The notes: generated by a model from the letters alone, not told the origin. Counted from the stretch's first letter, positions 1,565-43,128 are shown. The stretch: DNA of 64,000 nt from Patescibacteria group bacterium (GCA_963169855.1 CAUJCN010000002.1:517608-581607), one strand, 5' to 3'. Numbers and translations: made by a program.

Positions 1565-4402
1565 ATGCTTCCAGCAGGACCTTACGAACACAAACAATTT
1601 GAAAAAGAAATTTTAGACTTCTGGTTAGCAGGAGGTTACTACAGACCTGAATACTCACCAATTGCGGACTCGGTGATTTCTACAGAAGAAATGAAGAAAG
1701 ATTCAAGATTGCCTTGGTGTTTGATTTGTCCTCCACCAAACGCTTACGGAAGACCTCACATCGGAAACATTTCTGGTTACGCATACATGGATTCGATGGC
1801 TAGATACCAACGAATGAATGGAAAGAAAGTTTTAGTTCTCCCAGGAAAAGATCATGCTGGATTAGAAGGTGAGGGCGTTTTTGTTAGAGAAGTTTTGGAA
1901 AAACAAGGTCGAAATAAATTCGATATGAAGAGAGAAGAGTTCTATCAAGAAATGATGGAATTTAATTTCCAGAATATGGAGAAAGGACTTCAAGATGAGA
2001 AAAACATCGGCCTATCTGCGGATTTTTCGAGGAATACATTTACTCTTGATCCAGATATTGTAGATACAGTGTTGGAAACTTTTGTTCAGATGTACAAAAA
2101 GGACATGATTTATAAAGGCGTTAGAATTGTAAACTGGGATCCAAAAGCCAGAAGTGTTGTTGCCGATAATCAATGCGTTAGAGAAGAAAGGGACGGAAGT
2201 CTTTACTATATTAAGTACCCGATTGTTAGTTCTGACGAATCATTGACAGTAGCTACAACCAGACCAGAAACAATGTTTGGAGATACTGCTGTTGCTGTGA
2301 ATCCAAAAGATAAAAGATTTGCTAGTTTTATTGGAAAGACCGTACGAATTCCTCTTACAGACATAGAGATTCCAGTGATTTCTTCATTTAGGGTTTTAGA
2401 AGATTTTGGAACTGGAGCTTTAAAAATAACCCCAGCACATTCTCAAGATGACTATCAAATTATGATGGAGTGGAATAAAGAGAATACTGATAAAACAATT
2501 GGTTATCAAAATGTGATCGATAAAAGATTAACTCTAGTTGGCAAAACTCCAGAAAAATACAAAGGCAGAAAGTACAAAGAAGCAAAGGAAGAAATTTTGA
2601 AAGATCTTACAGAACAAGGATTCTTGGTAAAAGAAGAGAAGGTTAAGCAGAATGTGCTGATCGCTGAAAGAACAAAAGCATTGATTGAACCGTTAATGTC
2701 TTCTCAGTGGTATTTAAAATATGATTCAATCAAAGAAGAATCCAAGAAAATGGTAAACGATGGGAGAATCAATCTTTTCCCAGAAAGTATGGTAGATAAA
2801 TTCAATTTTTGGATGGATAACTTGAGAGATTGGGCTATTTCTAGAAGTTTATGGTGGGGCTACAGATTGCCAGTTTGGTATGCAGGAGAAGTTAAAGAGG
2901 AAATCGATGACAACGGAGAGGTTAGGGAATTGATTCGAACTTCTAATTTAACTCGAAAACTAAATTCTGAAGTAACAGTTGAACATGCAAGAGTTGAGGA
3001 TGCAGAAGCGATTCACCGAATCAATGTTGATGGGTGGCATGACAATTTTGTTGATGAAGCGGCTGGAGTGACATTAGAAAGAATTCAAAACGAATTTGGG
3101 AAAAGATACGATAACTCCGAAGCGATCGAGAAACATAAAGCTGATATTGTTAGCCCAAACTATAAATATCTTGTTGCAAAATCCAATGGGGAAGTAATCG
3201 GCTGGGCTATAACCGAAAATTTAAACATCGATGACACAAAATGGTTTGATGTTTACGTAGACCGAAATTGGAGAAGCAAAGGAATCGGATCAACACTTTT
3301 AGATGCGATGATTTCTGAACTTCCTGAGACAACTTTCCATTTGGCAGTTCCAGAGAAAAGCCCCGCTGTTAAATTTTACGAAAACTATGGTTTTGTCGAA
3401 TACGACAGGAATAGTGAAAATGAGTACGGACTTCCAATCATTCAGATGAAAAAGCTTCCCGAATGGGAAGAAGTTGAATACGGAAACGAAAATCACATTA
3501 AAGTTCAGCAAGATTCTCCAGGAGAAGGATGGATTCAAGACGAAGATGTTTTGGATACTTGGTTTAGTTCTGGACAGTGGGTTTATGCGACTTTAAAGAA
3601 ATACGATCTTATGGATACATTCTTCCCATCAGACGTAATGGTTTCTGGATTCGATATCCTTGAAAACTGGATTTCTAGAATGATTATGTTCACTTATTTC
3701 CACGAGGGAAAAGAACCATTCAAAAATGTTTACCTTACTGGATTAGTACAAGGTACTGATGGACAGAAAATGTCTAAGTCGAAAGGAAATATGATCGACA
3801 TGGATAAAATCGTTGCAGAATATGGAACAGATGCAGTTAGACTTGCTTATTTCTACCAAAATTCAGCTGGAGCTTCTTATTCAATCACTCCTGAAAAGTT
3901 GAAAAACTTTAGAGGATTCTTAAACAAAATCTGGAACGCATCTAAGTTTGTTCTAAACAACGAACAGTACATTGATCAAAGTGTCATATTGAGCCTGTCG
4001 AAATATGACATCGATAGCTTGAAATTAGATTTATCTAAAAAAGTTTTAACTCACATAAACGAAGTAAATATTCACATCACTGAAAATATTGAAAAGTATC
4101 AATTAGGATTAGCAACATTTAACTTGTACCAGGAATTCTGGCATACATATTGCGATATTTTGATCGAAGAATCAAAAGAATATTTGTGGGATAAAAAAGA
4201 TAAAGAAACTGGAGCGATTATTAGTTCTCCAAAGGCAGAAGACAGAGCAGAGGTTTCTACTGTGATGATATTCGCTTTGAAATCATATTTAAAATTGTTA
4301 CATCCATTCATTCCGTTCATTACTCAAACTATTTGGAACGAAGTTCCAAAGGACGAAACTGACCATAAAGTTTTGATGTATAGCCAGTGGAATGTAAAAT
4401 AA
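1565..4402 (+). CDS. valS: Valyl-tRNA synthetase carrying an inserted GNAT domain
   Basis: Class I aaRS motifs: PPPNAYGRPHIGN (HIGH-like), TTRPETMFGDTAVAVNPKD (ValRS editing-domain signature), DWAISRSLWWGYRLPVWY, QDEDVLDTWFSSGQW, GQKMSKSKGNMID (KMSKS). Confidence 0.85.
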   Translation: MLPAGPYEHKQFEKEILDFWLAGGYYRPEYSPIADSVISTEEMKKDSRLPWCLICPPPNAYGRPHIGNISGYAYMDSMARYQRMNGKKVLVLPGKDHAGLEGEGVFVREVLEKQGRNKFDMKREEFYQEMMEFNFQNMEKGLQDEKNIGLSADFSRNTFTLDPDIVDTVLETFVQMYKKDMIYKGVRIVNWDPKARSVVADNQCVREERDGSLYYIKYPIVSSDESLTVATTRPETMFGDTAVAVNPKDKRFASFIGKTVRIPLTDIEIPVISSFRVLEDFGTGALKITPAHSQDDYQIMMEWNKENTDKTIGYQNVIDKRLTLVGKTPEKYKGRKYKEAKEEILKDLTEQGFLVKEEKVKQNVLIAERTKALIEPLMSSQWYLKYDSIKEESKKMVNDGRINLFPESMVDKFNFWMDNLRDWAISRSLWWGYRLPVWYAGEVKEEIDDNGEVRELIRTSNLTRKLNSEVTVEHARVEDAEAIHRINVDGWHDNFVDEAAGVTLERIQNEFGKRYDNSEAIEKHKADIVSPNYKYLVAKSNGEVIGWAITENLNIDDTKWFDVYVDRNWRSKGIGSTLLDAMISELPETTFHLAVPEKSPAVKFYENYGFVEYDRNSENEYGLPIIQMKKLPEWEEVEYGNENHIKVQQDSPGEGWIQDEDVLDTWFSSGQWVYATLKKYDLMDTFFPSDVMVSGFDILENWISRMIMFTYFHEGKEPFKNVYLTGLVQGTDGQKMSKSKGNMIDMDKIVAEYGTDAVRLAYFYQNSAGASYSITPEKLKNFRGFLNKIWNASKFVLNNEQYIDQSVILSLSKYDIDSLKLDLSKKVLTHINEVNIHITENIEKYQLGLATFNLYQEFWHTYCDILIEESKEYLWDKKDKETGAIISSPKAEDRAEVSTVMIFALKSYLKLLHPFIPFITQTIWNEVPKDETDHKVLMYSQWNVK
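2985..3470 (+). other. GNAT N-acetyltransferase domain inserted in frame within valS (about 160-190 aa)
   Basis: GNAT motif A VYVDRNWRSKGIGSTLLDAMI (R-x-x-G-x-G) and motif B KFYENYGFVE, located between the ValRS motifs WWGYRLPVWY and QDEDVLDTWFSS. E. coli ValRS has only about 30 aa at this position. Confidence 0.7.
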
Positions 4403-4405
4403 AGT

Positions 4406-4870
4406 ATGGTCAAATCTGCGGGAGTTTTATTATTCAGAACTAAGAATAAAGAGCTGGAAGTTTTTCTAGTTCATCCTGGTGGTCCATTTTTTGCAAAACG
4501 AGACAATGGAATTTGGTCTATTCCAAAAGGTGGAATCGAAGAAGGTGAATCTGATTTGGATGCTGGGAAAAGAGAATTATGGGAAGAAACGAGTCTTCAT
4601 TTGGAAGACGAACCTGAAACTAAATTCTTAGACTTAGGAACAATAAAATATTCTTCTGGAAAACAACTTCATTTTTTTGCCTTTGAATACAACGACGAAA
4701 TTGATTTCAAATCAATTACCACTTTTATAGAATTCCCTTACAAATCTGGAACTAAAATTGAAATTCCAGAAAACGACCAAGGTGGATGGTTTACTATTCA
4801 AGAAGCATTAGTTAAATTAAACAAAACTCAAGCTACAGTTTTACCTCGACTTCTAGATCTACTTAAATAG
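4406..4870 (+). CDS. NUDIX hydrolase
   Basis: Nudix box GGIEEGESDLDAGKRELWEETSL (G-x5-E-x7-REUxEExGU). Confidence 0.75.
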   Translation: MVKSAGVLLFRTKNKELEVFLVHPGGPFFAKRDNGIWSIPKGGIEEGESDLDAGKRELWEETSLHLEDEPETKFLDLGTIKYSSGKQLHFFAFEYNDEIDFKSITTFIEFPYKSGTKIEIPENDQGGWFTIQEALVKLNKTQATVLPRLLDLLK

Positions 4871-5876
4871 ATTTGTTTGGTTTAGGTGGAATTGAAGGTG
4901 GTGGAGGCATTTGCGATCCTCCAGGTTTTCTATTTGTAAAAGGTGGAATCATTGTTGGAGGAGCCATTGGAGGAACTACAGGATTCTCCGATTCAAGTCG
5001 AACTTCGATTGGTTTAGTTTCCTCTTGTGGATTTAGTATAGAATCAAGTTCTTTAAGTAACTCTCCAAATACTTCGCTTTGATAACGAGTAGAAAACGAC
5101 CCTGGCTTTGCTTTTGATTGAGATTCCACATAATTGCGTATTCTTTCTCTTACTGCCAAATTCTGTTCAAAATTTGATTTAGCAAAGTTGTTCTTCAAAG
5201 CATCTAGAATATATTTTATCGCTAAATTTGAAGGGTTCACTCCATCAACTTGCTCAAGAGAAGTGAGAAGAACATCGATGTTTCTTACATTATCACCCTG
5301 ATTTAGTGAATTAATGAATCTGAAAAGATCGAAAATTCGTGTTTGATAAGCAACTTCTCTTCTCTTAACAAGTTCTTGCTCACCTTTAAATTCTTCTTTC
5401 GTGACCTGTTCTAATATTATCCCAACTAACTTTCTTACACCTGTCGATTCTGGGGAATTTTCTGATTCAATGACTTCATCGACACCTGCAACGTTACCTT
5501 GGGATATTTGGTCATTAATTGCATGAATACTTTTTCCAATTTCAGTGTATAAGTATTTACCCGTTTTACTTGTAGTAGCGTAATATTCTTTTTCGCACCA
5601 GACCATTAACTCGTCTCGTTGGATTTTGGTCAATCGTAAAAGCAATCCCCTTACTTTGTTGAACAAGAATTGAATTAATCGATGACTTTTATCGAAAGAG
5701 TTTTCTATTCTCGGCAAATAATTCACAACTTCCTTAAGCGTTTCGTACCCATCGAAGCCTTTCGCTTCAAATAATTCTCCAAAAAAGCCTTCTAATTGAA
5801 TAGGCGTAGCAACTTCCAATCGTCTAAAGATTACACTGATATCTCCGTTTTTCGGCTGGTCTACCCTTGGGTTCAT
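4863..5876 (-). CDS. Hypothetical protein with proline-rich C-terminal tail (337 aa)
   Basis: C-terminus VVPPMAPPTMIPPFTNRKPGGSQMPPPPSIPPKPNKSI. No enzymatic motif. 4-bp overlap with the upstream gene 5873..6238. Confidence 0.5.
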   Translation of the reverse strand: MNPRVDQPKNGDISVIFRRLEVATPIQLEGFFGELFEAKGFDGYETLKEVVNYLPRIENSFDKSHRLIQFLFNKVRGLLLRLTKIQRDELMVWCEKEYYATTSKTGKYLYTEIGKSIHAINDQISQGNVAGVDEVIESENSPESTGVRKLVGIILEQVTKEEFKGEQELVKRREVAYQTRIFDLFRFINSLNQGDNVRNIDVLLTSLEQVDGVNPSNLAIKYILDALKNNFAKSNFEQNLAVRERIRNYVESQSKAKPGSFSTRYQSEVFGELLKELDSILNPQEETKPIEVRLESENPVVPPMAPPTMIPPFTNRKPGGSQMPPPPSIPPKPNKSI

Positions 5877-6238
5877 ATGAATGGCTTTGTATTTAACTGT
5901 ATTTTTCTTTGATCAAAAAGAGCTACGATTTTTTGCCTCTTCTCCTCTAATGTAGGAACTGCAAAATTGAATCCTTTAATTTTTCTAGCGAAAATATCCA
6001 CGGTCTGTTCAAGAAGTTTGCCGGAATTGAAGACCTCTACAATCTTATCCATAATCTGCATTGTATAAGGAGATCTTGTTTCTTCGCTAAGTTCTAAAAA
6101 ATCAAAAAGTTTGTACAATTTTTGCTCATCGTTAGCACCTCGTTGCTCCATCACAACATCAAATGCAGTAAAGTTTAATGCTTGATCAGTTGGATTTTTA
6201 ATTAATTCTTCTAAAGCGGATTCTCCTGTTGCTGACAT
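5873..6238 (-). CDS. Hypothetical protein (121 aa), first gene of a two-gene operon
   Basis: Translationally coupled (ATGA-type overlap) to 4863..5876. Confidence 0.45.
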   Translation of the reverse strand: MSATGESALEELIKNPTDQALNFTAFDVVMEQRGANDEQKLYKLFDFLELSEETRSPYTMQIMDKIVEVFNSGKLLEQTVDIFARKIKGFNFAVPTLEEKRQKIVALFDQRKIQLNTKPFI

Positions 6239-6360: not shown

Positions 6361-7893
6361 ATGGAAAATACAAGCACTACAACGGAAGAAGTAAAAAATG
6401 ATAATGTTGAGACTCCAAAAGAGCCTACAGTGGAAGTTAAAACTGAATCAAAGTTTCAAAAATTTAAAAGAAAATTTAAGAGTTTCGCAAAAACTAGAAA
6501 AGGAAAAATCGTGTTAGGGGTGGGAGGAATTTTAACTGTTGGCTCAGTAATAGGATTGGTGTTATTGTTGAGTAAAAAGCCTGGAGCTCAAGAACCTAAT
6601 ATTCAAGTCTCAGAAACAATTGCTTCAGATAAAATTTATGATAACTACGATTTTGTTTACTCAAGTGAGGACACAAGATTAATTGCGACAACTTATGATG
6701 GAGCAAAGCAACTTGAACTTGTTATAGGTGAAGCTAAGATTTTAGACTACATAATTTCTCCAGATAAACGAAAAATTACTTACGTCCTTTCTGATGTAAA
6801 TTATAAAAATAAAATTACTTCGCCAAATGTTGATATAACAAAATTCAATTTCTATCCTGTTGGCTTTAGTATTTATCAATTAGATTTAGAAACTGGAGAT
6901 AATAGCTTGATTTGGTCTAGGGATAGAATAGAGCTACCAGCTACGAATCAACGACTATACAAACAAAAAGAAGTAATTCTCCCTGACAGCTACGCGATTG
7001 GATATGACTGGAATGGAATGCCATACAGTTACCCTGTAAGTTATTCCGAATTTATTGACGATATCGAGGGTGGGTACATTAGTACCTATTTGCCTTACGA
7101 CTTATCTATGTTATTGACGAGAGGTGATATTAGACTAATAAATTACAGCGACACTGGCGCGTCTATCTTGTTCCTTGCCGAAAGTAAGTTGTTTTCATTT
7201 AGCAATACTTCAGAAACTCTCGCAGAAATTTCTGGAGAAGAACAGATTAATAATTGTTTCCCAGGATACTTAAGGTTTTTCAGCAATATTATCTTTCACC
7301 ATACTCAATGCGGAACTACAATCTTTAGTGTCACGAACAATTCACTGGCAAAATATTCTGGGTTGCAAGTAAACAATGGGGAGTTAAAACCTTTGCAAGC
7401 TACTACTCAGGGAAACCTTTTAGCTGAAGTAAATTACTATGGCTATCCTAGACAATCCCCAGACAGTTTGAACTTTGTAAATCTTTCAACAAATTCTATA
7501 AACAAAATCCAAGATCTTGCGGACGAAGATTCAGCAAAAGAGCTTGAAGTCATAAGATCAGAAAACATTTACACAATCCTTGCTAGCGACATTACTGAAC
7601 CTTCTGGACAAATCGTAAACCAAAATATTAAGTTAATGAAATACAATGCAGATTCTAATTTGTTTGAGGTAGTATCAACTTTGATTCTACCTGCAGATGC
7701 TGGGAATCTAATTTACGATGAATCTACAAACTCTCTTACCTTTTTTATTACCTATCGTTCAACTAGTCAGGTGATAATTGAGTATAAAACGGTAAATCTA
7801 GAAACTATGAAAGAGACTTTGCTATCGACTACGAAAGCTCCTTCAGATTCTGTACTAGTGTATAGACCTAAACTGTTAGGATTAAGAAACTAA
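6361..7893 (+). CDS. Membrane-anchored extracytoplasmic protein (510 aa), hypothetical
   Basis: Lys-rich N-terminus, then a single TM segment IVLGVGGILTVGSVIGLVLLL and a large Ser/Thr/Asn-rich domain. Confidence 0.5.
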   Translation: MENTSTTTEEVKNDNVETPKEPTVEVKTESKFQKFKRKFKSFAKTRKGKIVLGVGGILTVGSVIGLVLLLSKKPGAQEPNIQVSETIASDKIYDNYDFVYSSEDTRLIATTYDGAKQLELVIGEAKILDYIISPDKRKITYVLSDVNYKNKITSPNVDITKFNFYPVGFSIYQLDLETGDNSLIWSRDRIELPATNQRLYKQKEVILPDSYAIGYDWNGMPYSYPVSYSEFIDDIEGGYISTYLPYDLSMLLTRGDIRLINYSDTGASILFLAESKLFSFSNTSETLAEISGEEQINNCFPGYLRFFSNIIFHHTQCGTTIFSVTNNSLAKYSGLQVNNGELKPLQATTQGNLLAEVNYYGYPRQSPDSLNFVNLSTNSINKIQDLADEDSAKELEVIRSENIYTILASDITEPSGQIVNQNIKLMKYNADSNLFEVVSTLILPADAGNLIYDESTNSLTFFITYRSTSQVIIEYKTVNLETMKETLLSTTKAPSDSVLVYRPKLLGLRN

Positions 7894-8873
7894 AACTTCT
7901 TGTACCACTCATTCATAGAAGTAATTACATCTTCTATTGAATGTTCAGCTTTCCAGTTGAGCAGTGTATTAGCTTTTGTTGGGATTGTAATTGCTTTCCC
8001 AACATCGCTTGGTCTTCGAGGTGCAATCTTATACTGGAAATCTTTATCTACAATTTCTTTAAACTTCTCCATTATTTCTAAAACTGAATAACCAGTTCCT
8101 GTTCCTAAATTAAAAACATTAAATCCAGGATTATTTTGCATATACTCAATTGCTTTTAAATGGGCAGAGCACAAATCAATTACGTGAATGTAGTCTCGAA
8201 TTCCGCTTCCATCTGGAGTATCGAAGTCTGTTCCAAAAACTGAAAATTCTGTTGGTTTTATTTTGTAATATGATAGAAACAAAGCTGCAAAAATACTTGT
8301 GTTTGTTGTAGATGGATCTCCAATTGATCCGTCCATTGCGTTGCCACAAACATTAAAATACCTTAAGGCAGTTGCGTTCAATCCAAATGCTTGATTCGAA
8401 TATTCTAAAAGTTTTTCGCAAGCTAGTTTCGAATATCCATACGGAGCAGTAGGTTCTGTAGGAGATTCTTCTGAAAGCACTCCTGTTTCGCTGAATTTAT
8501 AGACATTTGCAGTAGAAGAGAATACAAAATTTTTAATTCCCTTTTCCTTGGCAAACTTTACAAGATTGGTTGTTCCGCCAATATTGTTGTCGTAATATTT
8601 TTCTGGAAATTCTACCGATTCTGGAATTGATTTTAACGCGGCAAAATTGATAATCGCATCTAGTTCAACATCAATTTTCAATAAGTCTTCATCATTTCTA
8701 ATATCCAATTGCTCAAACCTGAATTCACCGTATTTTTTTCTAAGCGAATCAATATTTTTTAAATCGGATGTCGATAAGTTGTCTATAACAAATGGTGTGT
8801 GACCTTTTTCTAAGAGTAGAGCAACCATATGAGATCCGATGTAACCCGCACCTCCAGCAACAAGAATATTCAT
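7890..8873 (-). CDS. galE: UDP-glucose 4-epimerase-like NAD-dependent epimerase/dehydratase
   Basis: N-terminal Rossmann motif MNILVAGGAGYIGSHMV; SDR catalytic segment YGYSKLACEKLL; length 327 aa. Confidence 0.7.
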   Translation of the reverse strand: MNILVAGGAGYIGSHMVALLLEKGHTPFVIDNLSTSDLKNIDSLRKKYGEFRFEQLDIRNDEDLLKIDVELDAIINFAALKSIPESVEFPEKYYDNNIGGTTNLVKFAKEKGIKNFVFSSTANVYKFSETGVLSEESPTEPTAPYGYSKLACEKLLEYSNQAFGLNATALRYFNVCGNAMDGSIGDPSTTNTSIFAALFLSYYKIKPTEFSVFGTDFDTPDGSGIRDYIHVIDLCSAHLKAIEYMQNNPGFNVFNLGTGTGYSVLEIMEKFKEIVDKDFQYKIAPRRPSDVGKAITIPTKANTLLNWKAEHSIEDVITSMNEWYKKF

Positions 8874-8968
8874 AAAAGAAATTTAATCTAAACCAAAGTT
8901 TATCATGAACTGATACCTATTATAAAAATTCCTACTGGGAACTGAATCTTGATGTATAATAAATTGAT

Positions 8969-9820
8969 ATGAAAAATGATGTTAGTGTATACGAACCCAA
9001 TCAAAGATTAAAGACTGGAATCCTTTCTTCGTACATAATGATGATTCGGAACATAGTTGCCTCGAGAGAGCTTATCTATCAGCTATTCAGAAGGGACTTT
9101 GTGTTAGCTTATAAAAAATCATTTTTGGGATTCAGCTGGGTGTTGATATCTCCTATAGTCGGAATTCTTTCTTGGCTACTACTTAATGGAACTGGTGTTT
9201 TAAATCCTGGAGATTTACCAATTGATTTTGCACCTTACGTTTTACTTACATCATCGCTTTGGGGATTGTTTATGGGATTTTACTCCTCTGCACAAGCAAC
9301 TTTGGATGCTGGAAGCGGATTTATTAATCAGGTAAAATTCCCTCACGAAGCACTTTTGGTAAAGCAGACAGCTCAGCATTTAGCAAACTTCTCACTCACA
9401 TTTTTGGTAAGCGTTGTTACTTTGCTAATTTTTGGAATCGTTCCTAATATTACTATTGTTCTTTTCCCAATTGTGATTCTTCCATTATTCTTCTTAGGAG
9501 GAGGAATTGGGTTAGTGATGTCTGTTATCAATGTTGTTACACCAGACTTTGTTAGATTCTTTGGGGTATTTTTAGGTTTTGTTTTTTATGCAACACCAAT
9601 TATTTATTCTCCTAATATCGAAAATCCCCTATTACAGTCCTTAATCCAGATTAATCCACTTACTTATTTGATTGGTGCTGCTAGGGACATTATAGTTAGT
9701 GGAAGCATTGGAAACATTGATAGATTTTTAGCCACTAGTATAGTTTCCTTTGTAATATTCTTAATCTCTCTCAGATTGTTTTTTGTTTCAGAGGATAAAG
9801 TTATCGAAAGAATGATTTAA
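8969..9820 (+). CDS. ABC-2 type polysaccharide/teichoic-acid exporter permease (Wzm/TagG-like)
   Basis: Six hydrophobic segments, 283 aa, immediately upstream of and coupled to a Wzt-like ATPase. Confidence 0.7.
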   Translation: MKNDVSVYEPNQRLKTGILSSYIMMIRNIVASRELIYQLFRRDFVLAYKKSFLGFSWVLISPIVGILSWLLLNGTGVLNPGDLPIDFAPYVLLTSSLWGLFMGFYSSAQATLDAGSGFINQVKFPHEALLVKQTAQHLANFSLTFLVSVVTLLIFGIVPNITIVLFPIVILPLFFLGGGIGLVMSVINVVTPDFVRFFGVFLGFVFYATPIIYSPNIENPLLQSLIQINPLTYLIGAARDIIVSGSIGNIDRFLATSIVSFVIFLISLRLFFVSEDKVIERMI

Positions 9821-9823
9821 ATT

Positions 9824-11035
9824 ATGGAAGAAAATCTAGTAGTAAGAGTAGAAAATTTATCGAAAAAATTCACAAGAAATATTAAACATACTTTGATCTA
9901 TGGGACAATTGATGTTCTTAAAAGTATGATTGGCTTCAAACCGAACACTGCAAAACTCCGAAGAGGCGAATTTTGGGCACTTAAGAATATAAATTTTGAT
10001 CTTAAGAAGGGAGAAGTCCTTGGAATTATTGGAGAGAATGGTTCAGGAAAATCTACACTTTTACGTCTGTTAACAGGAATCTTTCCCCCAGATATTGGGA
10101 CGGTAACTATCAGAGGACGAATTGGTGCACTGATTGCTGTAGGAGCAGGTTTCAATCCACATATGAGTGGATATGAAAACATTTACCTCAATGGAACCAT
10201 TTTAGGTGCAACAACCAGCGAGATACACGATAAGATAGAAGAGATAGTGAATTTTGCCGATATTGGCGAGTTTATACATGCCCCTGTTTCTACATATTCC
10301 TCTGGGATGAGAGTTAGACTTGGGTTTTCTTGCGCAATTCATTTCACGCCAGAAATATTGTTGATCGATGAGGTTTTGAGTGTCGGAGATCTAAATTTCA
10401 GACAAAAATGTTTTAGGAAAATTGACGAGATAAGAAAAGATACGTCGATCATTTTCATTTCACACAATATGAATCAAGTACAAAGATTGTGTGACCGAGT
10501 AATTGTAATGGACCATGGTGAAATAATTTTTGATGGTGAGACTTCAAAAGGAGTATCGCATTATTTAGAAATAAATAATCAGACATCGCAACAAAATTCC
10601 GACAGTTTCTTGATTGTGAACGAAACAACCGAATCTATTTCAAAATTGAATTTAGAATTGATCGATGAGAGTGGAGTGGCTAAAGCTTCTTTGAACTACC
10701 TTGAGACTTTGAAAATACTAACTTCTTTTGAAAGTAACGTTGAAATGGAAGAAGTCTTGATTGCCTTTGTCCTGTACTCTTCTGACGGAGTGGCTATAAC
10801 CAAATTCGGACCAGAAGGAGCGACTAAGATAATTAAGGGAATCAATAAATTTAGCATTGAAGTTACACAGCCATTTTTCTTACCAGGGAACTATTACATC
10901 GGTTTTAAATGGAGAGAGAAAAATAACTCAGTAATCGCTGACGCTACTACGAAAAGTTTCCGAATTACTCAGCCAAAGGACTACACAGTATCTGTTGGGC
11001 TGATCGATTCTAAATCAGTTCTAACAAAGCATTAA
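9824..11035 (+). CDS. ABC exporter ATP-binding protein with C-terminal carbohydrate-binding domain (Wzt/TagH-like)
   Basis: Walker A GENGSGKSTLLRLLTG, signature YSSGMRVRLGF, Walker B LLIDEVLSVGD; about 150 aa beta-rich C-terminal extension (403 aa total). Confidence 0.8.
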   Translation: MEENLVVRVENLSKKFTRNIKHTLIYGTIDVLKSMIGFKPNTAKLRRGEFWALKNINFDLKKGEVLGIIGENGSGKSTLLRLLTGIFPPDIGTVTIRGRIGALIAVGAGFNPHMSGYENIYLNGTILGATTSEIHDKIEEIVNFADIGEFIHAPVSTYSSGMRVRLGFSCAIHFTPEILLIDEVLSVGDLNFRQKCFRKIDEIRKDTSIIFISHNMNQVQRLCDRVIVMDHGEIIFDGETSKGVSHYLEINNQTSQQNSDSFLIVNETTESISKLNLELIDESGVAKASLNYLETLKILTSFESNVEMEEVLIAFVLYSSDGVAITKFGPEGATKIIKGINKFSIEVTQPFFLPGNYYIGFKWREKNNSVIADATTKSFRITQPKDYTVSVGLIDSKSVLTKH

Positions 11036-40315: not shown

Positions 40316-40912
40316 ATGTCTGTTACCGAGAATACTTTAGAGAATCTTTTTATTTCAAAAGTAAGAATTAAGGCGTTGAGATATTTCTTGATGAACCCTG
40401 AAACTGAAATTCATTTAAGAGGAGCTGTTAGAGAATTCAAAGAAGAGATTAACGCAGTAAGAAGAGAGTTAACTAGACTTGAAGAAGCTAAAGTTATTTC
40501 TTCTACAAACAAAGGTAATAGAAAGTATTTTGAATTGAACGGAGATCATCCTTTCGTTACAGAGCTAATTGCTGTTTTCCATAAATCTTTTGGATTAGGT
40601 TCAGAGATTTTAGAAAATCATAAAAAGATTGGTAATATTGAGTTTGCTCTTCTAACACCGTCGTATACGAGAGGAATTTTCTTGAATATGCAAATTATTG
40701 ACATGGTCATTGTGGGAGATATTGATTTAAAAGTATTGGAAGATATTGTGAATAAGTGTCAAACGAAGCTGAATAAAGAAATTCATTACATGGTTTTAAA
40801 GTCTTCCGAATTTCAGTTGAGAAAAAGAAGAAGAGATCAATTGATGTTAGATCTTTTGATGCAGGATAACGTTCTTCTGATAGGAAATAGAGATTCCTTA
40901 GTTAAATTCTAA
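40316..40912 (+). CDS. Predicted winged-helix DNA-binding protein
   Basis: VRIKALRYFLMNPETEIHLRGAVREFKEEINAVRRELTRLEEAKVISSTNKGNRKYFEL has the shape of a wHTH recognition-helix region. ATG at 40316 is preferred over the TTG at 40253. Confidence 0.4.
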   Translation: MSVTENTLENLFISKVRIKALRYFLMNPETEIHLRGAVREFKEEINAVRRELTRLEEAKVISSTNKGNRKYFELNGDHPFVTELIAVFHKSFGLGSEILENHKKIGNIEFALLTPSYTRGIFLNMQIIDMVIVGDIDLKVLEDIVNKCQTKLNKEIHYMVLKSSEFQLRKRRRDQLMLDLLMQDNVLLIGNRDSLVKF

Positions 40913-43128
40913 TGAGCAAAACCGTAAAAATTGTTGGTCCATTTTTTACTAACTACAGCTTAGCTAGAGTAAATAGAGGACTGGCGCTCGGAATAAATTC
41001 ACTTGGCAATGAATTTCAATCTAGCTTATATGTTCATCCTGATGAAGCAGATTTTTACCCAACTGATGAGGAACTAAACTCAAGACCTGAAGTTAAACAA
41101 ATATTTAATCGGGAAGATTTTGTAGCAGACTTTGCTATATATAATAATTTTCCTAAAAATGCTGGAAGTCCTTTAGGATTATCAAAATTAAATGCTCGAA
41201 TTAAAATTGCAAATGTTGCATGGGAAGAGAGTATTTATCCGCAACAATGGGTCGATGAAATTAACGAACATGCAAACGGAGTTATGGTGATTACTTCTTT
41301 TGTTAGAGATATTCTATTCAATTCTGGAGTTAGAGTTCCTATAGAAGTTGTTCCTTGCGGACTTGATCGAGGGTATTTTGGAAATGAAATTGGTGAGTTA
41401 CCTTACTCAACAAGCAAATCATTTAAATTCGTTCATGTTAGTACTGGCAAAAAACGAAAAGGTTTGGACGTTTTGATTAAAGCTTACTTTGAGAAATTCA
41501 CAAAAAACGATGATGTGACTTTAATTATCAAATCATTCCCTGGTCCAGATAATGATATCGACAGAATTATTGATGAGCTGAGGACTGAAAATTCTCCAGA
41601 AGTAATTCACATAAACAATCCTGATATTCCTGAAGATGTAATGAAAAATCTTCACAAATCTGCTTCTGCAGAAGTGTATCCTTCGAGGTCAGAAGGGTTT
41701 GGATTACCAATCCTAGAAGCAATGTATTACGGAAAACCAGTAATTGCCACTGGATATAGTGGCTATTTAGATTTTCTAAACGAAGATAATGGTTACTTGG
41801 TTGATTATTCGCTAGTTCCAACAAATGAGTCTGAACTAGTGAACATCGGTGCGAGATGGGCAGAGCCTGATGTAGACGATTTGGGACGCAAAATGAGGCA
41901 TGTTTTCGAGAACTACAATTCTGGAGAAGTTGAAGCAAAAATGAGAAATGCTGCAACGACTGCTCAAGAATATTCTTGGGAAAACTCAGCGTCGAGAGGA
42001 ATAAATTTTCTTAGACAATTGGAAGAAGTTGTTGGACTAAAAAATAAAAGCATTCTTGTAGTTTCTCCTTACAACGACGAGACTGGAATCGCTGAGTACA
42101 CTGAAAAAATTTACAGTAATGTTTCTAGGAGTTTTAAAGAATTTATTATTTCGTCCAATATTGATATCGCAAAAACTTTACGTCCAGACGAAGATTTTGT
42201 GGTTCGAAATTGGAGTTTGAACGATTCTGAATTTGAAGATCTAGTGAAATTTGTTGAAGATAAAAGATTCGATATCGTTCATTTGCAATATCATCCTGGA
42301 GCATTTACTTCAGCAGCTGATTTTAATTTACTTCTTGCGAAGATGAGCAAATTGAGTAGAGTGTTCGTAACTTTACACGCAGTTAGAGGAAAAGATTTCG
42401 ATCTAATTGAATCCATTCCAAATTTGAAATTAGTTGAAGTATTTATTCATAATCAGAGCGATGTTTATCATGCTCAGAATTTAGGTTTACAGAAAGTGTC
42501 GAAACTTCCTTTGTATAAAACTCAGACTTCTCCTCGATCGAAAACTTGGTTGCGAAAGAAGCTGGGAATTCCTGGTCATATTAAGATTCTAGCAACTCAC
42601 GGATTGCTAAATACAAACAAAGGAATTCCTGAAGTTATTCAAGCTATGAGTAATTTGAAGGATCAAGGTTATTATTTACTTTGCCTTAACGCAGTTAGTC
42701 AAAATAATATTTACGCTGGACAGCTCCTTCAATCATGTAAAGATGAAATTGAAAAATTGAAACTTACAGAACACGTTAGATTCATAACCGAATTCTTAGA
42801 TGAAGAAGTTGTTATGCTGTATTTGGAAGCTTCAGACTTCGTGATTTTCAATTATTCCGACGCTGGCGAATCTGCGAGTGCGGCTGTAAACAAAGGACTC
42901 GCAAGTAGGAATCCGGTTTTAATTACTGATATTCCTCAGTTTTCTGAATTTGAACACGAATGTTTTAAGCTTGAAAGCAATTCACCAGAAAGTATTTTGA
43001 GAGGTATCGAAGTTCTTTCAAATTACCCTGACATGAGAAAGAAAATGATAGAGAGTGCAGCAAAGTATATCGAAGCGAATTCGAACTACAAAATTGGTCT
43101 AAAACAAATGGAAATGATTTCTGTATGA
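40912..43128 (+). CDS. Two-module glycosyltransferase (two GT-B/GT4-like halves, 738 aa)
   Basis: Module 1 SRSEGFGLPILEAMYYGKPVIATGYSGYLDFL; module 2 ESASAAVNKGLASRNPVLITDIPQFSEF. Confidence 0.6.
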   Translation: MSKTVKIVGPFFTNYSLARVNRGLALGINSLGNEFQSSLYVHPDEADFYPTDEELNSRPEVKQIFNREDFVADFAIYNNFPKNAGSPLGLSKLNARIKIANVAWEESIYPQQWVDEINEHANGVMVITSFVRDILFNSGVRVPIEVVPCGLDRGYFGNEIGELPYSTSKSFKFVHVSTGKKRKGLDVLIKAYFEKFTKNDDVTLIIKSFPGPDNDIDRIIDELRTENSPEVIHINNPDIPEDVMKNLHKSASAEVYPSRSEGFGLPILEAMYYGKPVIATGYSGYLDFLNEDNGYLVDYSLVPTNESELVNIGARWAEPDVDDLGRKMRHVFENYNSGEVEAKMRNAATTAQEYSWENSASRGINFLRQLEEVVGLKNKSILVVSPYNDETGIAEYTEKIYSNVSRSFKEFIISSNIDIAKTLRPDEDFVVRNWSLNDSEFEDLVKFVEDKRFDIVHLQYHPGAFTSAADFNLLLAKMSKLSRVFVTLHAVRGKDFDLIESIPNLKLVEVFIHNQSDVYHAQNLGLQKVSKLPLYKTQTSPRSKTWLRKKLGIPGHIKILATHGLLNTNKGIPEVIQAMSNLKDQGYYLLCLNAVSQNNIYAGQLLQSCKDEIEKLKLTEHVRFITEFLDEEVVMLYLEASDFVIFNYSDAGESASAAVNKGLASRNPVLITDIPQFSEFEHECFKLESNSPESILRGIEVLSNYPDMRKKMIESAAKYIEANSNYKIGLKQMEMISV

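Follow-up and report, generated by a model that had tools for sequence, protein, structure and literature searches.

Few enzymes are as conserved as the aminoacyl-tRNA synthetases, and lineage-specific additions to them have repeatedly brought new biology (editing, signalling, and lipid aminoacylation). The gene considered here is valS in a 64,000-nucleotide stretch of DNA, hereafter the window, from a Patescibacteria group bacterium (GCA_963169855.1, CAUJCN010000002.1:517608-581607). The valyl-tRNA synthetase (ValRS) that it encodes contains an internal GNAT acetyltransferase domain, and several described systems resemble this arrangement in part.

The NCBIfam family NF040702, 'isoleucine--tRNA ligase, N-acetyltransferase domain-containing' (ileS_w_GNAT), likewise combines a class Ia branched-chain synthetase and a GNAT in one polypeptide. 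Its host is isoleucyl-tRNA synthetase (IleRS). The window protein scores 124.5 bits against this family, compared with a cut-off of 1999, through the shared synthetase part only, and the GNAT insert alone gives no match. No literature on the NF040702 family was found.

LysX (LysRS-MprF) and ErdS (AspRS-DUF2156) also have a synthetase and a GNAT-superfamily domain in a single protein. In these proteins, the GNAT-fold part consumes the aminoacyl-tRNA of the neighbouring synthetase (PMC2922099; PMC13219428). LysX and ErdS are terminal fusions to paralogous synthetases, whereas the window GNAT is internal and lies in a housekeeping, syntenic valS. They carry transferases of the Fem/MprF type with aminoacyl-tRNA as the donor, while the one GNAT of the window protein is of the acetyl-CoA type, keeps its RxxGxG motif intact, and matches no FemAB or DUF2156 profile.

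TacT, AtaT, and ItaT are GNATs that acetylate the alpha-amine of aminoacyl-tRNA. They resemble the insert in being small and acetyl-CoA-dependent, and theirs is the chemistry that an earlier note on this DNA, made from the sequence alone, had proposed for it. In contrast, the window domain is acidic rather than basic (isoelectric point 4.8, net charge -12), is embedded in an essential enzyme, and has no specific similarity to these proteins among the matches listed; none of the three is among the 50-60 matches listed per sequence or structure search with the GNAT. No cognate antitoxin gene is found next to valS, whose neighbours are a NUDIX hydrolase gene and hypothetical genes, and PADLOC is blank.

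MccE and RimL detoxify aminoacyl-adenylate mimics. These two, PAT/BAR, ArsN1, the tabtoxin resistance protein, and MnaT/YncA neutralise toxic mimics of amino acids or aminoacyl-adenylates by acetylation of the amino group. PAT/BAR, ArsN, TTR, YncA, and RimL occur among the structural neighbours of the insert. However, enzymes of the MccE/RimL/PAT type are free-standing and not built into the target synthetase, and their similarity to the insert is generic (11-24% identity).

The position of the insert is also a known one. Class Ia synthetases (Thermus thermophilus ValRS with its zinc knuckle, and IleRS) have the connective peptide CP3 at the same place, from WWGxxxPxW to the DTWF(S/D)S strand that opens the second half of the Rossmann fold. 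In the IleRS nomenclature, CP3 links CP2 to this second half, and its topology and zinc content vary between species (PMC7191050). Known CP3 are structural peptides of about 30-60 residues with zinc or none, while the window hairpin carries an enzyme domain of 166 residues.

Full-text literature searches found no published description of a ValRS-GNAT fusion or of enzyme-domain cassettes in synthetases of the candidate phyla radiation (CPR). The earlier note was aware of no such fusion; the literature agrees with it, but the related IleRS-GNAT family NF040702 is already in NCBIfam. Lineage-specific insertions in synthetases and domains appended to them were known before. The new elements are the internal CP3 site, the housekeeping ValRS as host, the acetyl-CoA-type GNAT, and an exchangeable palette of modules. 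This palette extends to leucyl-tRNA synthetase (LeuRS), and gatCAB operons mirror it. Public databases hold the ValRS-GNAT proteins, unnamed as such.

The valS gene and its insert

The valS gene, for valine-tRNA ligase, is a single unbroken open reading frame (ORF) on the + strand of the window, at 1565-4402 including the stop codon, and encodes 945 residues. The protein scores 657.2 bits against TIGR00422 (the NCBIfam valS equivalog, cut-off 612.1), which places it among the ValRS. Its best relative in the PDB is T. thermophilus ValRS 1GAX (sequence expectation value, E, 2e-114), which is also the top fold match of the AlphaFold2 model (Foldseek E 2.9e-49). This full-protein model has a mean predicted local distance difference test score (pLDDT) of 92 and a predicted template modelling score (pTM) of 0.80. 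The relatives with names are assigned to Candidatus Dojkabacteria (WS6), within the Patescibacteria/CPR. The closest ValRS are P0002 (775 residues, 86% protein identity) and P0003 (777 residues, 81%), and both are insert-free. The insert-free orthologues share the gene order pyruvate kinase ... valS - NUDIX (loci L004 and L007). This synteny indicates that the window gene is the housekeeping valS, and that the GNAT is dispensable over short evolutionary time.

The insert comprises residues 459-632 (174 residues; 2939..3460, + strand) and consists of an 8-residue linker and a complete GNAT fold at residues 467-632. It is flanked by the two arms of the CP3 hairpin. The N-terminal arm, WWGYRLPVWY...GEVRELIR, occupies residues 430-458 (2852..2938, + strand), is homologous to the arm of the orthologues, and has AlphaFold2-predicted strands at residues 441-447 and 453-459. 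The C-terminal arm and the return to the Rossmann fold, EWEEVEYGNENHIKVQQDSPGEGWIQDEDVLDTWFSS, occupy residues 633-669 (3461..3571, + strand) and align with T. thermophilus ValRS from residue 448 on. The segment is anchored by WWGYRLPVWY at residues 430-439 and QDEDVLDTWFSS at residues 658-669. From anchor to anchor it spans 240 residues in the window protein versus 73-76 in the closest orthologues. In T. thermophilus ValRS, 28 residues (420-447, the zinc knuckle) lie between WWGHQIPAWY and RDEDVFDTWFSS.

Dojkabacteria ValRS that lack the insert have here a hairpin of 45-55 residues with the consensus WWGYRLPVWYxGExKEEIxxxGxVxE(F/Y)Ix-[tip]-W(V/I)PLEYxNPNHxRVQxxxPGEGWxQDExVLDTWFSS. The window protein has the tip of this hairpin exchanged for 174 residues, and its hairpin contains no cysteines. 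A DNA alignment with the closest orthologous genes (L004, 78% nucleotide identity; L007, 75%) places the extra DNA at window positions 2937-3471, as a net in-frame gain of 513 and 501 nucleotides, respectively, between homologous hairpin arms. The insert has a G+C content of 0.38-0.40, which is not distinct from the remainder of the gene, and no obvious flanking repeats were seen around it. The insertion site can be assigned with high confidence to the tip of a beta-hairpin in the peripheral, variable CP3 connective-peptide subdomain, outside the catalytic core proper.

Most of the description in the earlier note holds. It had read a continuous valS ORF from the HIGH region through the editing domain to KMSKS, and one ORF of 945 residues with intact motifs bears this out. 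Its quoted strings (anchors, motifs A and B, and KMSKS) are all present in that ORF. Its estimate of a 160-190-residue segment in place of about 30 residues in Escherichia coli ValRS corresponds to the 174 residues found versus 28 in T. thermophilus, and alignment to 1GAX maps the insertion point between the anchors, in CP3. Of its coordinates, 2985-3470, the 3′ end is right and the 5′ end lies about 48 nucleotides late. The insertion is in frame, as it stated, and inside the catalytic (Rossmann-fold) domain, but at the CP3 periphery rather than in the core that it named. Two outcomes that it named as fatal, a segment with no GNAT profile hit and an assembly chimera, are both contradicted by the evidence given below.

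The GNAT domain

Three Pfam GNAT models match the insert above their gathering thresholds. Acetyltransf_10 matches residues 510-630 with E 6.9e-14, Acetyltransf_7 matches with E 1.5e-12, and Acetyltransf_1 with E 2.3e-12 (52.4, 48.1, and 47.6 bits versus thresholds of 23.6, 27, and 20.7). Motif A, VYVDRNWRSKGIGSTLL, lies at residues 563-579 (3251-3301, + strand) and includes the acetyl-CoA pyrophosphate-binding motif R-x-x-G-x-G, which reads RSKGIG, at residues 570-575 (3272..3289, + strand). The form Q/R-x-x-G-x-G/A, after strand 4, is kept in 10 of the 11 GNATs borne by ValRS and in the free-standing relatives. Motif B, KFYENYGFVE, lies at residues 603-612 (3371..3400, + strand). The Tyr of its 'FY' (P0001 residue 605) is invariant over 19 family members, and so is a family-specific signature of helix 1, D…I…GW, within DGWxDNF.

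Modelled alone from an alignment of the 19 family members, the domain adopts a GNAT fold (pLDDT 96, pTM 0.90). Its structural neighbours (11-26% identity) are uncharacterised GNATs, N-alpha-acetyltransferases (Ard1/Naa10 and RimI), and the toxic amino-acid-analogue resistance acetyltransferases (PAT/BAR, ArsN, tabtoxin resistance protein, and YncA). In all of the nearest characterised neighbours, the group acetylated is an amine on an amino acid or a peptide. RimI (TIGR01575) is the best NCBIfam match of the insert alone, at 42.4 bits and below its cut-off of 86.4, and the insert scores far below the cut-offs of the ArsN1 and PAT profiles. The GNAT is complete, has intact catalytic motifs, and is apparently functional. 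The retention of catalytic motifs in diverged hosts points to selection for some activity.

The same gene, with 0 nucleotide differences, was assembled independently from the runs ERR10655384, ERR10655378, and ERR10655382, and the identical protein occurs on 8 contigs, which rules out an assembly chimera. An intein, intron, or other spliced element was also rejected. The window protein has no match to a Hint/intein profile, and the junction residues (…ELIR|TSNL… and …KKLP|EWEE…) are not the intein-type Cys/Ser ... His-Asn|Cys/Ser/Thr. A search of the whole window with Rfam, intron models included, gave no family at its gathering threshold. The insertion is, with high confidence, a genuine domain insertion encoded as one ORF.

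Cassettes in related ValRS

The same insertion was found in relatives. In a MAFFT alignment of the 120 best ValRS matches, with positions given in P0002 coordinates, 11 ValRS have a homologous GNAT at one shared point, namely the window protein and ten proteins of other samples. The alignment has four insertion hot spots, at about 221, about 400, 459-462, and 481-491. The site of the window protein is 459-462, and in other Dojkabacteria ValRS it contains a GNAT alone, a GNAT and a HAD-like module (P0013), a GNAT and a histidine phosphatase (P0026), a histidine phosphatase alone (P0067; His_Phos_1, E 1.7e-24), or a HAD-like module, once in P0075 and twice in P0077. All cassettes at this site have the junctions …ELI(K/R)L-cassette-…W(V/I)PLEY… in common. 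The adjacent PGEGW loop contains a histidine phosphatase in P0004 (complete genome CP129475.1, locus L052) and a serine hydrolase (PF06821) in P0024.

The distribution of the GNAT does not follow that of its hosts. For each of the 11 ValRS with a GNAT there is a GNAT-less relative with 71-93% core identity, which is at least as close as the nearest GNAT-bearing one, and closer in 9 of the 11. Two types of GNAT occupy the site, and the GNAT tree conflicts with the ValRS tree. The cores of P0006 and of P0018 and P0023 are 77-78% identical, while their GNATs are just 33-35% identical. P0043, on the other hand, has a core that is 45-55% identical to those of other GNAT-bearing ValRS, while its GNAT shares 58-64% identity with the GNATs of P0023, P0024, and P0004.

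One pair of valS genes, P0043 with a GNAT and P0109 with none, has flanks that are 86-99% identical in nucleotides around a non-homologous CP3 segment (47% over 88 aligned columns), which extends from after …TGGTACA to …AAGG. The two genes have different hairpin types. Near-identical flanks around a CP3 segment that cannot be aligned indicate replacement of the segment by homologous recombination. The conserved flanks WWGYRxPVWY and PGEGWxQDxxVxDTWFSS are the probable places at which such recombination exchanges CP3 segments. The window gene and its orthologues have homologous arms and differ simply by a gain or loss at the hairpin tip. Judged from these comparisons of sequences, the insert behaves, with high confidence, as one of several swappable enzyme modules at recurrent ValRS sites.

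Further inserts were observed at these and other sites. P0111 (1073 residues; 'hypothetical protein D6810_03085' at NCBI and 'valine--tRNA ligase' in UniRef) has a second, divergent GNAT-like segment at about 397, in the hot spot at about 400 (Pfam E 8e-6). An insert of about 112-256 residues at site ~221, near the start of the editing region, is present in most Dojkabacteria ValRS (P0011, P0016, P0057, and others), has no Pfam match, and is absent from the window protein. In P0026, the insert at this site nests a DUF559 domain (Vsr/restriction-endonuclease-like, E 1e-31). Two loci of other CPR lineages, L044 (Berkelbacteria; 3001-3594) and L080 (3001-3552; the record is labelled 'uncultured Gammaproteobacteria'), clearly have in common an unrelated module of about 130 residues in the CP3 loop, …IFNGIKNGTKTIELRAGR…, with no Pfam match. 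It resembles a weak ASCH match at site ~221 of P0051. The Berkelbacteria inserts and some Dojkabacteria insert types come from a single-protein scan of GTDB genomes, which was driven by the ValRS flank EGWIQDED and returned mostly insert-free ValRS from many phyla.

GNAT relatives in LeuRS, gatCAB operons, and free-standing genes

An exhaustive HMMER search with the insert against 1.84 billion representatives gave 431 matches. Among the best 150 of the 431, internal GNAT inserts of large enzymes occur only in ValRS (P0013 and P0018) and LeuRS (P0124 and P0132). In the LeuRS P0124 (1236 residues) and P0132 (995 residues), the homologous GNAT follows the N-terminal Rossmann half and precedes the editing domain. 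P0124 additionally bears an alpha/beta serine hydrolase module after its editing domain.

The true homologues of the insert include the free-standing CPR 'DGWxDNF' GNATs (P0121, P0122, and the P0123/P0275 group), which have the same length and conserved residues. They differ in being separate genes of about 170 residues, annotated just as 'GNAT family' or 'RimI-like'. Each GNAT type has its own free-standing relative of 172 residues, P0121 (43% identity) and P0122 (37%). The next-closest free-standing relatives are those of the P0123/P0125/P0126 group, with E 1e-13 to 1e-12 to the insert. The P0123/P0275 group is 28-34% identical to it.

Four members of the P0123 group were examined, from a word-index search with the family alignment that returned only short free-standing GNATs. 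All four lie between gatA and gatB of a Glu/Asp-tRNA amidotransferase operon (L089, 4205-6915; L091, 4726-6891; L094, 4780-6879; L096, 3789-6888). The operon reads gatC-gatA-[variable extras]-DUF1653-GNAT-gatB, and the stop and start codons of neighbouring genes abut or overlap. DUF1653 and the GNAT are constant in the four loci, and NTPase_1, serine hydrolase/abhydrolase, or cupin genes are present in some. One of the loci encodes a Ser_hydrolase (PF06821), a family that is inserted in ValRS and LeuRS too. An anti-phage defence module was considered and rejected: PADLOC is blank for the insert, its free relatives, and the operon neighbours, except for weak matches to the NTPase.

Possible functions

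A plausible, though tentative, reading is that the domain is a dispensable accessory N-acetyltransferase whose acceptor would be the amino group of an aminoacyl compound linked to aminoacyl-tRNA synthesis. The GNAT would be catalytically competent and tethered beside the acceptor-end side of the synthetase, and would take no required step of valylation. Its acceptor would most likely be the free alpha-amino group of such a compound; candidates are an amino acid that is toxic or mis-activated, a mimic of an aminoacyl-adenylate, and an aminoacyl-tRNA. Its role would be protection or quality control, with the logic of MccE/RimL or of the amino-acid-analogue resistance acetyltransferases. The aminoacyl link is proposed because the same GNAT family sits in LeuRS and inside gatCAB operons. 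The acceptor-side residues of the GNAT are conserved across the members associated with ValRS, LeuRS, and gatCAB, which speaks for an acceptor moiety common to all of them rather than one specific to valine.

Several observations weigh against an aminoacyl-directed accessory enzyme. The insert-free close orthologues fit an accessory role, and equally a neutral passenger. Tethering offers little gain to an enzyme that detoxifies small molecules. The GNAT positions are non-equivalent, CP3 in ValRS versus just before CP1 in LeuRS, which argues against a precise geometry from active site to active site. The four gatCAB loci represent about one evolutionary event because their synteny is shared. 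P0121 and P0122 lie outside gatCAB, the former about 2 kb from a metG-HAD-tatD cluster, and the latter next to a DUF2200 gene. The matches to characterised GNATs are generic (15-26% identity), so the fold gives no acceptor assignment.

A wider form of this proposal, which is speculative and improbable as it stands, is that class Ia synthetase genes of the CPR host a pool of in-frame enzyme cassettes exchanged by recombination. These would form a strain-variable protective layer in the target enzyme, and mimics and toxic analogues would be disarmed where they bind. The chemistry of the cassettes would be acetylation, dephosphorylation, or hydrolysis, and the pool would comprise the GNAT, histidine phosphatase, HAD-like, serine hydrolase, and ASCH-like modules. 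The ValRS GNAT would be a cis-acting equivalent of MccE/RimL, and the gatA-...-GNAT-gatB operons would be the unfused version.

The strongest rival, unlikely but serious, is that the GNAT is a passenger whose job has nothing to do with valylation; it might, for example, acetylate the N termini of ribosomal or other proteins in the manner of RimI/Nat. Residence in a loop that tolerates it, within a gene that is both essential and strongly expressed, would secure expression and inheritance in a streamlined genome, and the cassettes would spread by recombination like selfish or neutral elements. The top named profiles of the insert are RimI (TIGR01575, 42 bits) and N-terminal acetyltransferases, and JGI annotators label the free relatives 'RimI-like', but the RimI score falls short of its cut-off (42.4 versus 86.4). 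The existence of free-standing members means that the enzyme works without ValRS, but some of these free relatives lie inside gatCAB operons. Rapid gain and loss (the syntenic orthologues with 86% and 81% identity are insert-free), the structural variability of CP3 in class Ia synthetases, which makes it tolerant of insertions, the unrelated module types in the same loops, and the DUF559 endonuclease-like domain nested in another ValRS insert are all expected of a passenger. Two findings are less so: among the best 150 of the 431 matches the family is embedded in ValRS and LeuRS only and in no other large essential protein, and the catalytic motifs are kept in diverged hosts, which indicates selection for some activity.

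The suggestion made in the earlier note was that the GNAT could acetylate the synthetase's own product or divert Val-tRNA into non-ribosomal chemistry. Spelled out, Val-tRNA(Val) or mischarged Thr-tRNA(Val) would be N-acetylated in the manner of TacT, AtaT, and ItaT, which would throttle translation or divert valine from the ribosome. The tether lies in the connective-peptide superstructure around the acceptor-end cleft, the family is linked to ValRS, LeuRS, and GatCAB, whose common product is aminoacyl-tRNA, and the acceptor side is conserved whatever the amino acid of the partner, as would suit an enzyme that recognises the aminoacyl-adenosine end. Acetylation of aminoacyl-tRNA by GNATs is established (PMC7367177, PMC7595197). 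However, constitutive in-cis acetylation of the sole supply of Val-tRNA should be toxic, and the neighbours of valS, a NUDIX gene and hypothetical genes, include nothing antitoxin-like. The acidic charge of the domain is unlike that of a stand-alone tRNA binder. The module is also dispensable, is swapped with phosphatases and hydrolases, and differs in position between ValRS and LeuRS. Its one GNAT is of the acetyl-CoA type, whereas the aminoacyl-transferring Fem/DUF2156 type has two, and the three acetylating GNATs are missing from the matches listed. Acetylation of own Val-tRNA is possible but disfavoured as a constitutive activity, and the proposal as a whole is doubtful.

A built-in regulator has a smaller chance still. 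The GNAT would acetylate the synthetase's own lysines, for example those of the KMSKS loop, or a bound partner, and would couple valylation to the level of acetyl-CoA. Acetylated lysines in the KMSKS region lower the activity of Escherichia coli LeuRS and TyrRS, which counts for this explanation. The KMSKS lysines are present in the window protein, and short linkers tether the domain close to the catalytic domain. Lysine acetylation is reported as frequent in aminoacyl-tRNA synthetases (PMC6209979). Absence from sister species and interchange with phosphatase and hydrolase modules are not what one would expect of a regulator, and the free-standing and gatCAB-linked members have no tethered target.

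An artefact, or a decaying or removed element (a chimera, a pseudogenised fusion, or an intein or intervening sequence outside the mature enzyme), is hardly credible in view of the agreement of three independent run assemblies and 8 contigs, the uninterrupted reading frame and unremarkable composition, the homologous GNATs at the same site in ten other ValRS, the confident folding and conserved motifs, and the lack of an intein profile, intein junctions, or an Rfam intron.

An essential synthetase thus holds a complete second enzyme in a loop of its catalytic domain, and its relatives suggest that this is no one-off. If the modules act on aminoacyl compounds, they would represent a new form of translation quality control or self-protection in ultra-small bacteria, and candidate resistance activities against antibiotics that target synthetases. 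If they are passengers, they would provide a clear natural example of whole-domain insertion into, and exchange within, essential proteins, and a map of the ValRS loops that tolerate large insertions, which is useful in enzyme engineering.

Other features of the synthetase and neighbouring genes

The HIGH signature of the window protein reads HIGN and lies at residues 65-68 (1757..1768, + strand; assigned by motif position). H65, G67, and N68 are invariant among 69 related ValRS, so HIGN is the normal form of the lineage. The KMSKS signature, also assigned by motif position, lies at residues 735-739 (3767..3781, + strand), and K735, M736, K738, and S739 are invariant in the same 69 proteins.

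The CP1 editing domain occupies residues 211-359 (2195..2641, + strand) and matches the editing domain of T. thermophilus ValRS (1WKA, E 4.6e-25). Its motifs TTRPET (residues 231-236) and GTGALKITPAH (residues 282-292) are intact. T231, R233, T236, K287, T289, H292, and D296 are invariant over the 69 ValRS, whether the GNAT is present or absent. Compensation for a dead editing site was rejected as an explanation of the GNAT on this ground.

The anticodon-binding domain lies at residues 825-931 (4037..4357, + strand; Pfam Anticodon_1, E 1.2e-18). Pfam gives no match for the C-terminal coiled-coil tRNA-binding domain, which is usual in bacterial ValRS and not strictly defining. The 1GAX alignment stops at about residue 694 of 862, and merely 18 query residues remain. 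The protein ends soon after the anticodon-binding domain, at window positions 4357-4402, without the coiled coil of T. thermophilus. All close relatives are equally short, at about 760-780 residues without inserts.

The ORF, TIGR00422, the fold, and synteny together identify the gene, at the level of sequence and predicted structure, as encoding the housekeeping ValRS of a Candidatus Dojkabacteria bacterium with its catalytic and editing motifs all intact.

The window contains no tRNA gene and no second member of the GNAT family of the insert within its 64 kb. Pfam gives no match for four hypothetical genes, at 107-649, 963-1484, 4863-6238, and 6361-7893. A NUDIX hydrolase gene (154 residues) lies at 4406-4870 on the + strand and begins 4 nucleotides past the valS stop codon. 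NUDIX enzymes can hydrolyse dinucleoside polyphosphates, which are products of synthetases. The adjacency of valS and NUDIX is kept in the insert-free loci L004 and L007. Downstream of valS is a polysaccharide-type cluster, at 7890-11032 and 40906-43125, which contains an NAD-dependent epimerase, an ABC-2/Wzt-type exporter pair, and a two-domain GT4 glycosyltransferase.

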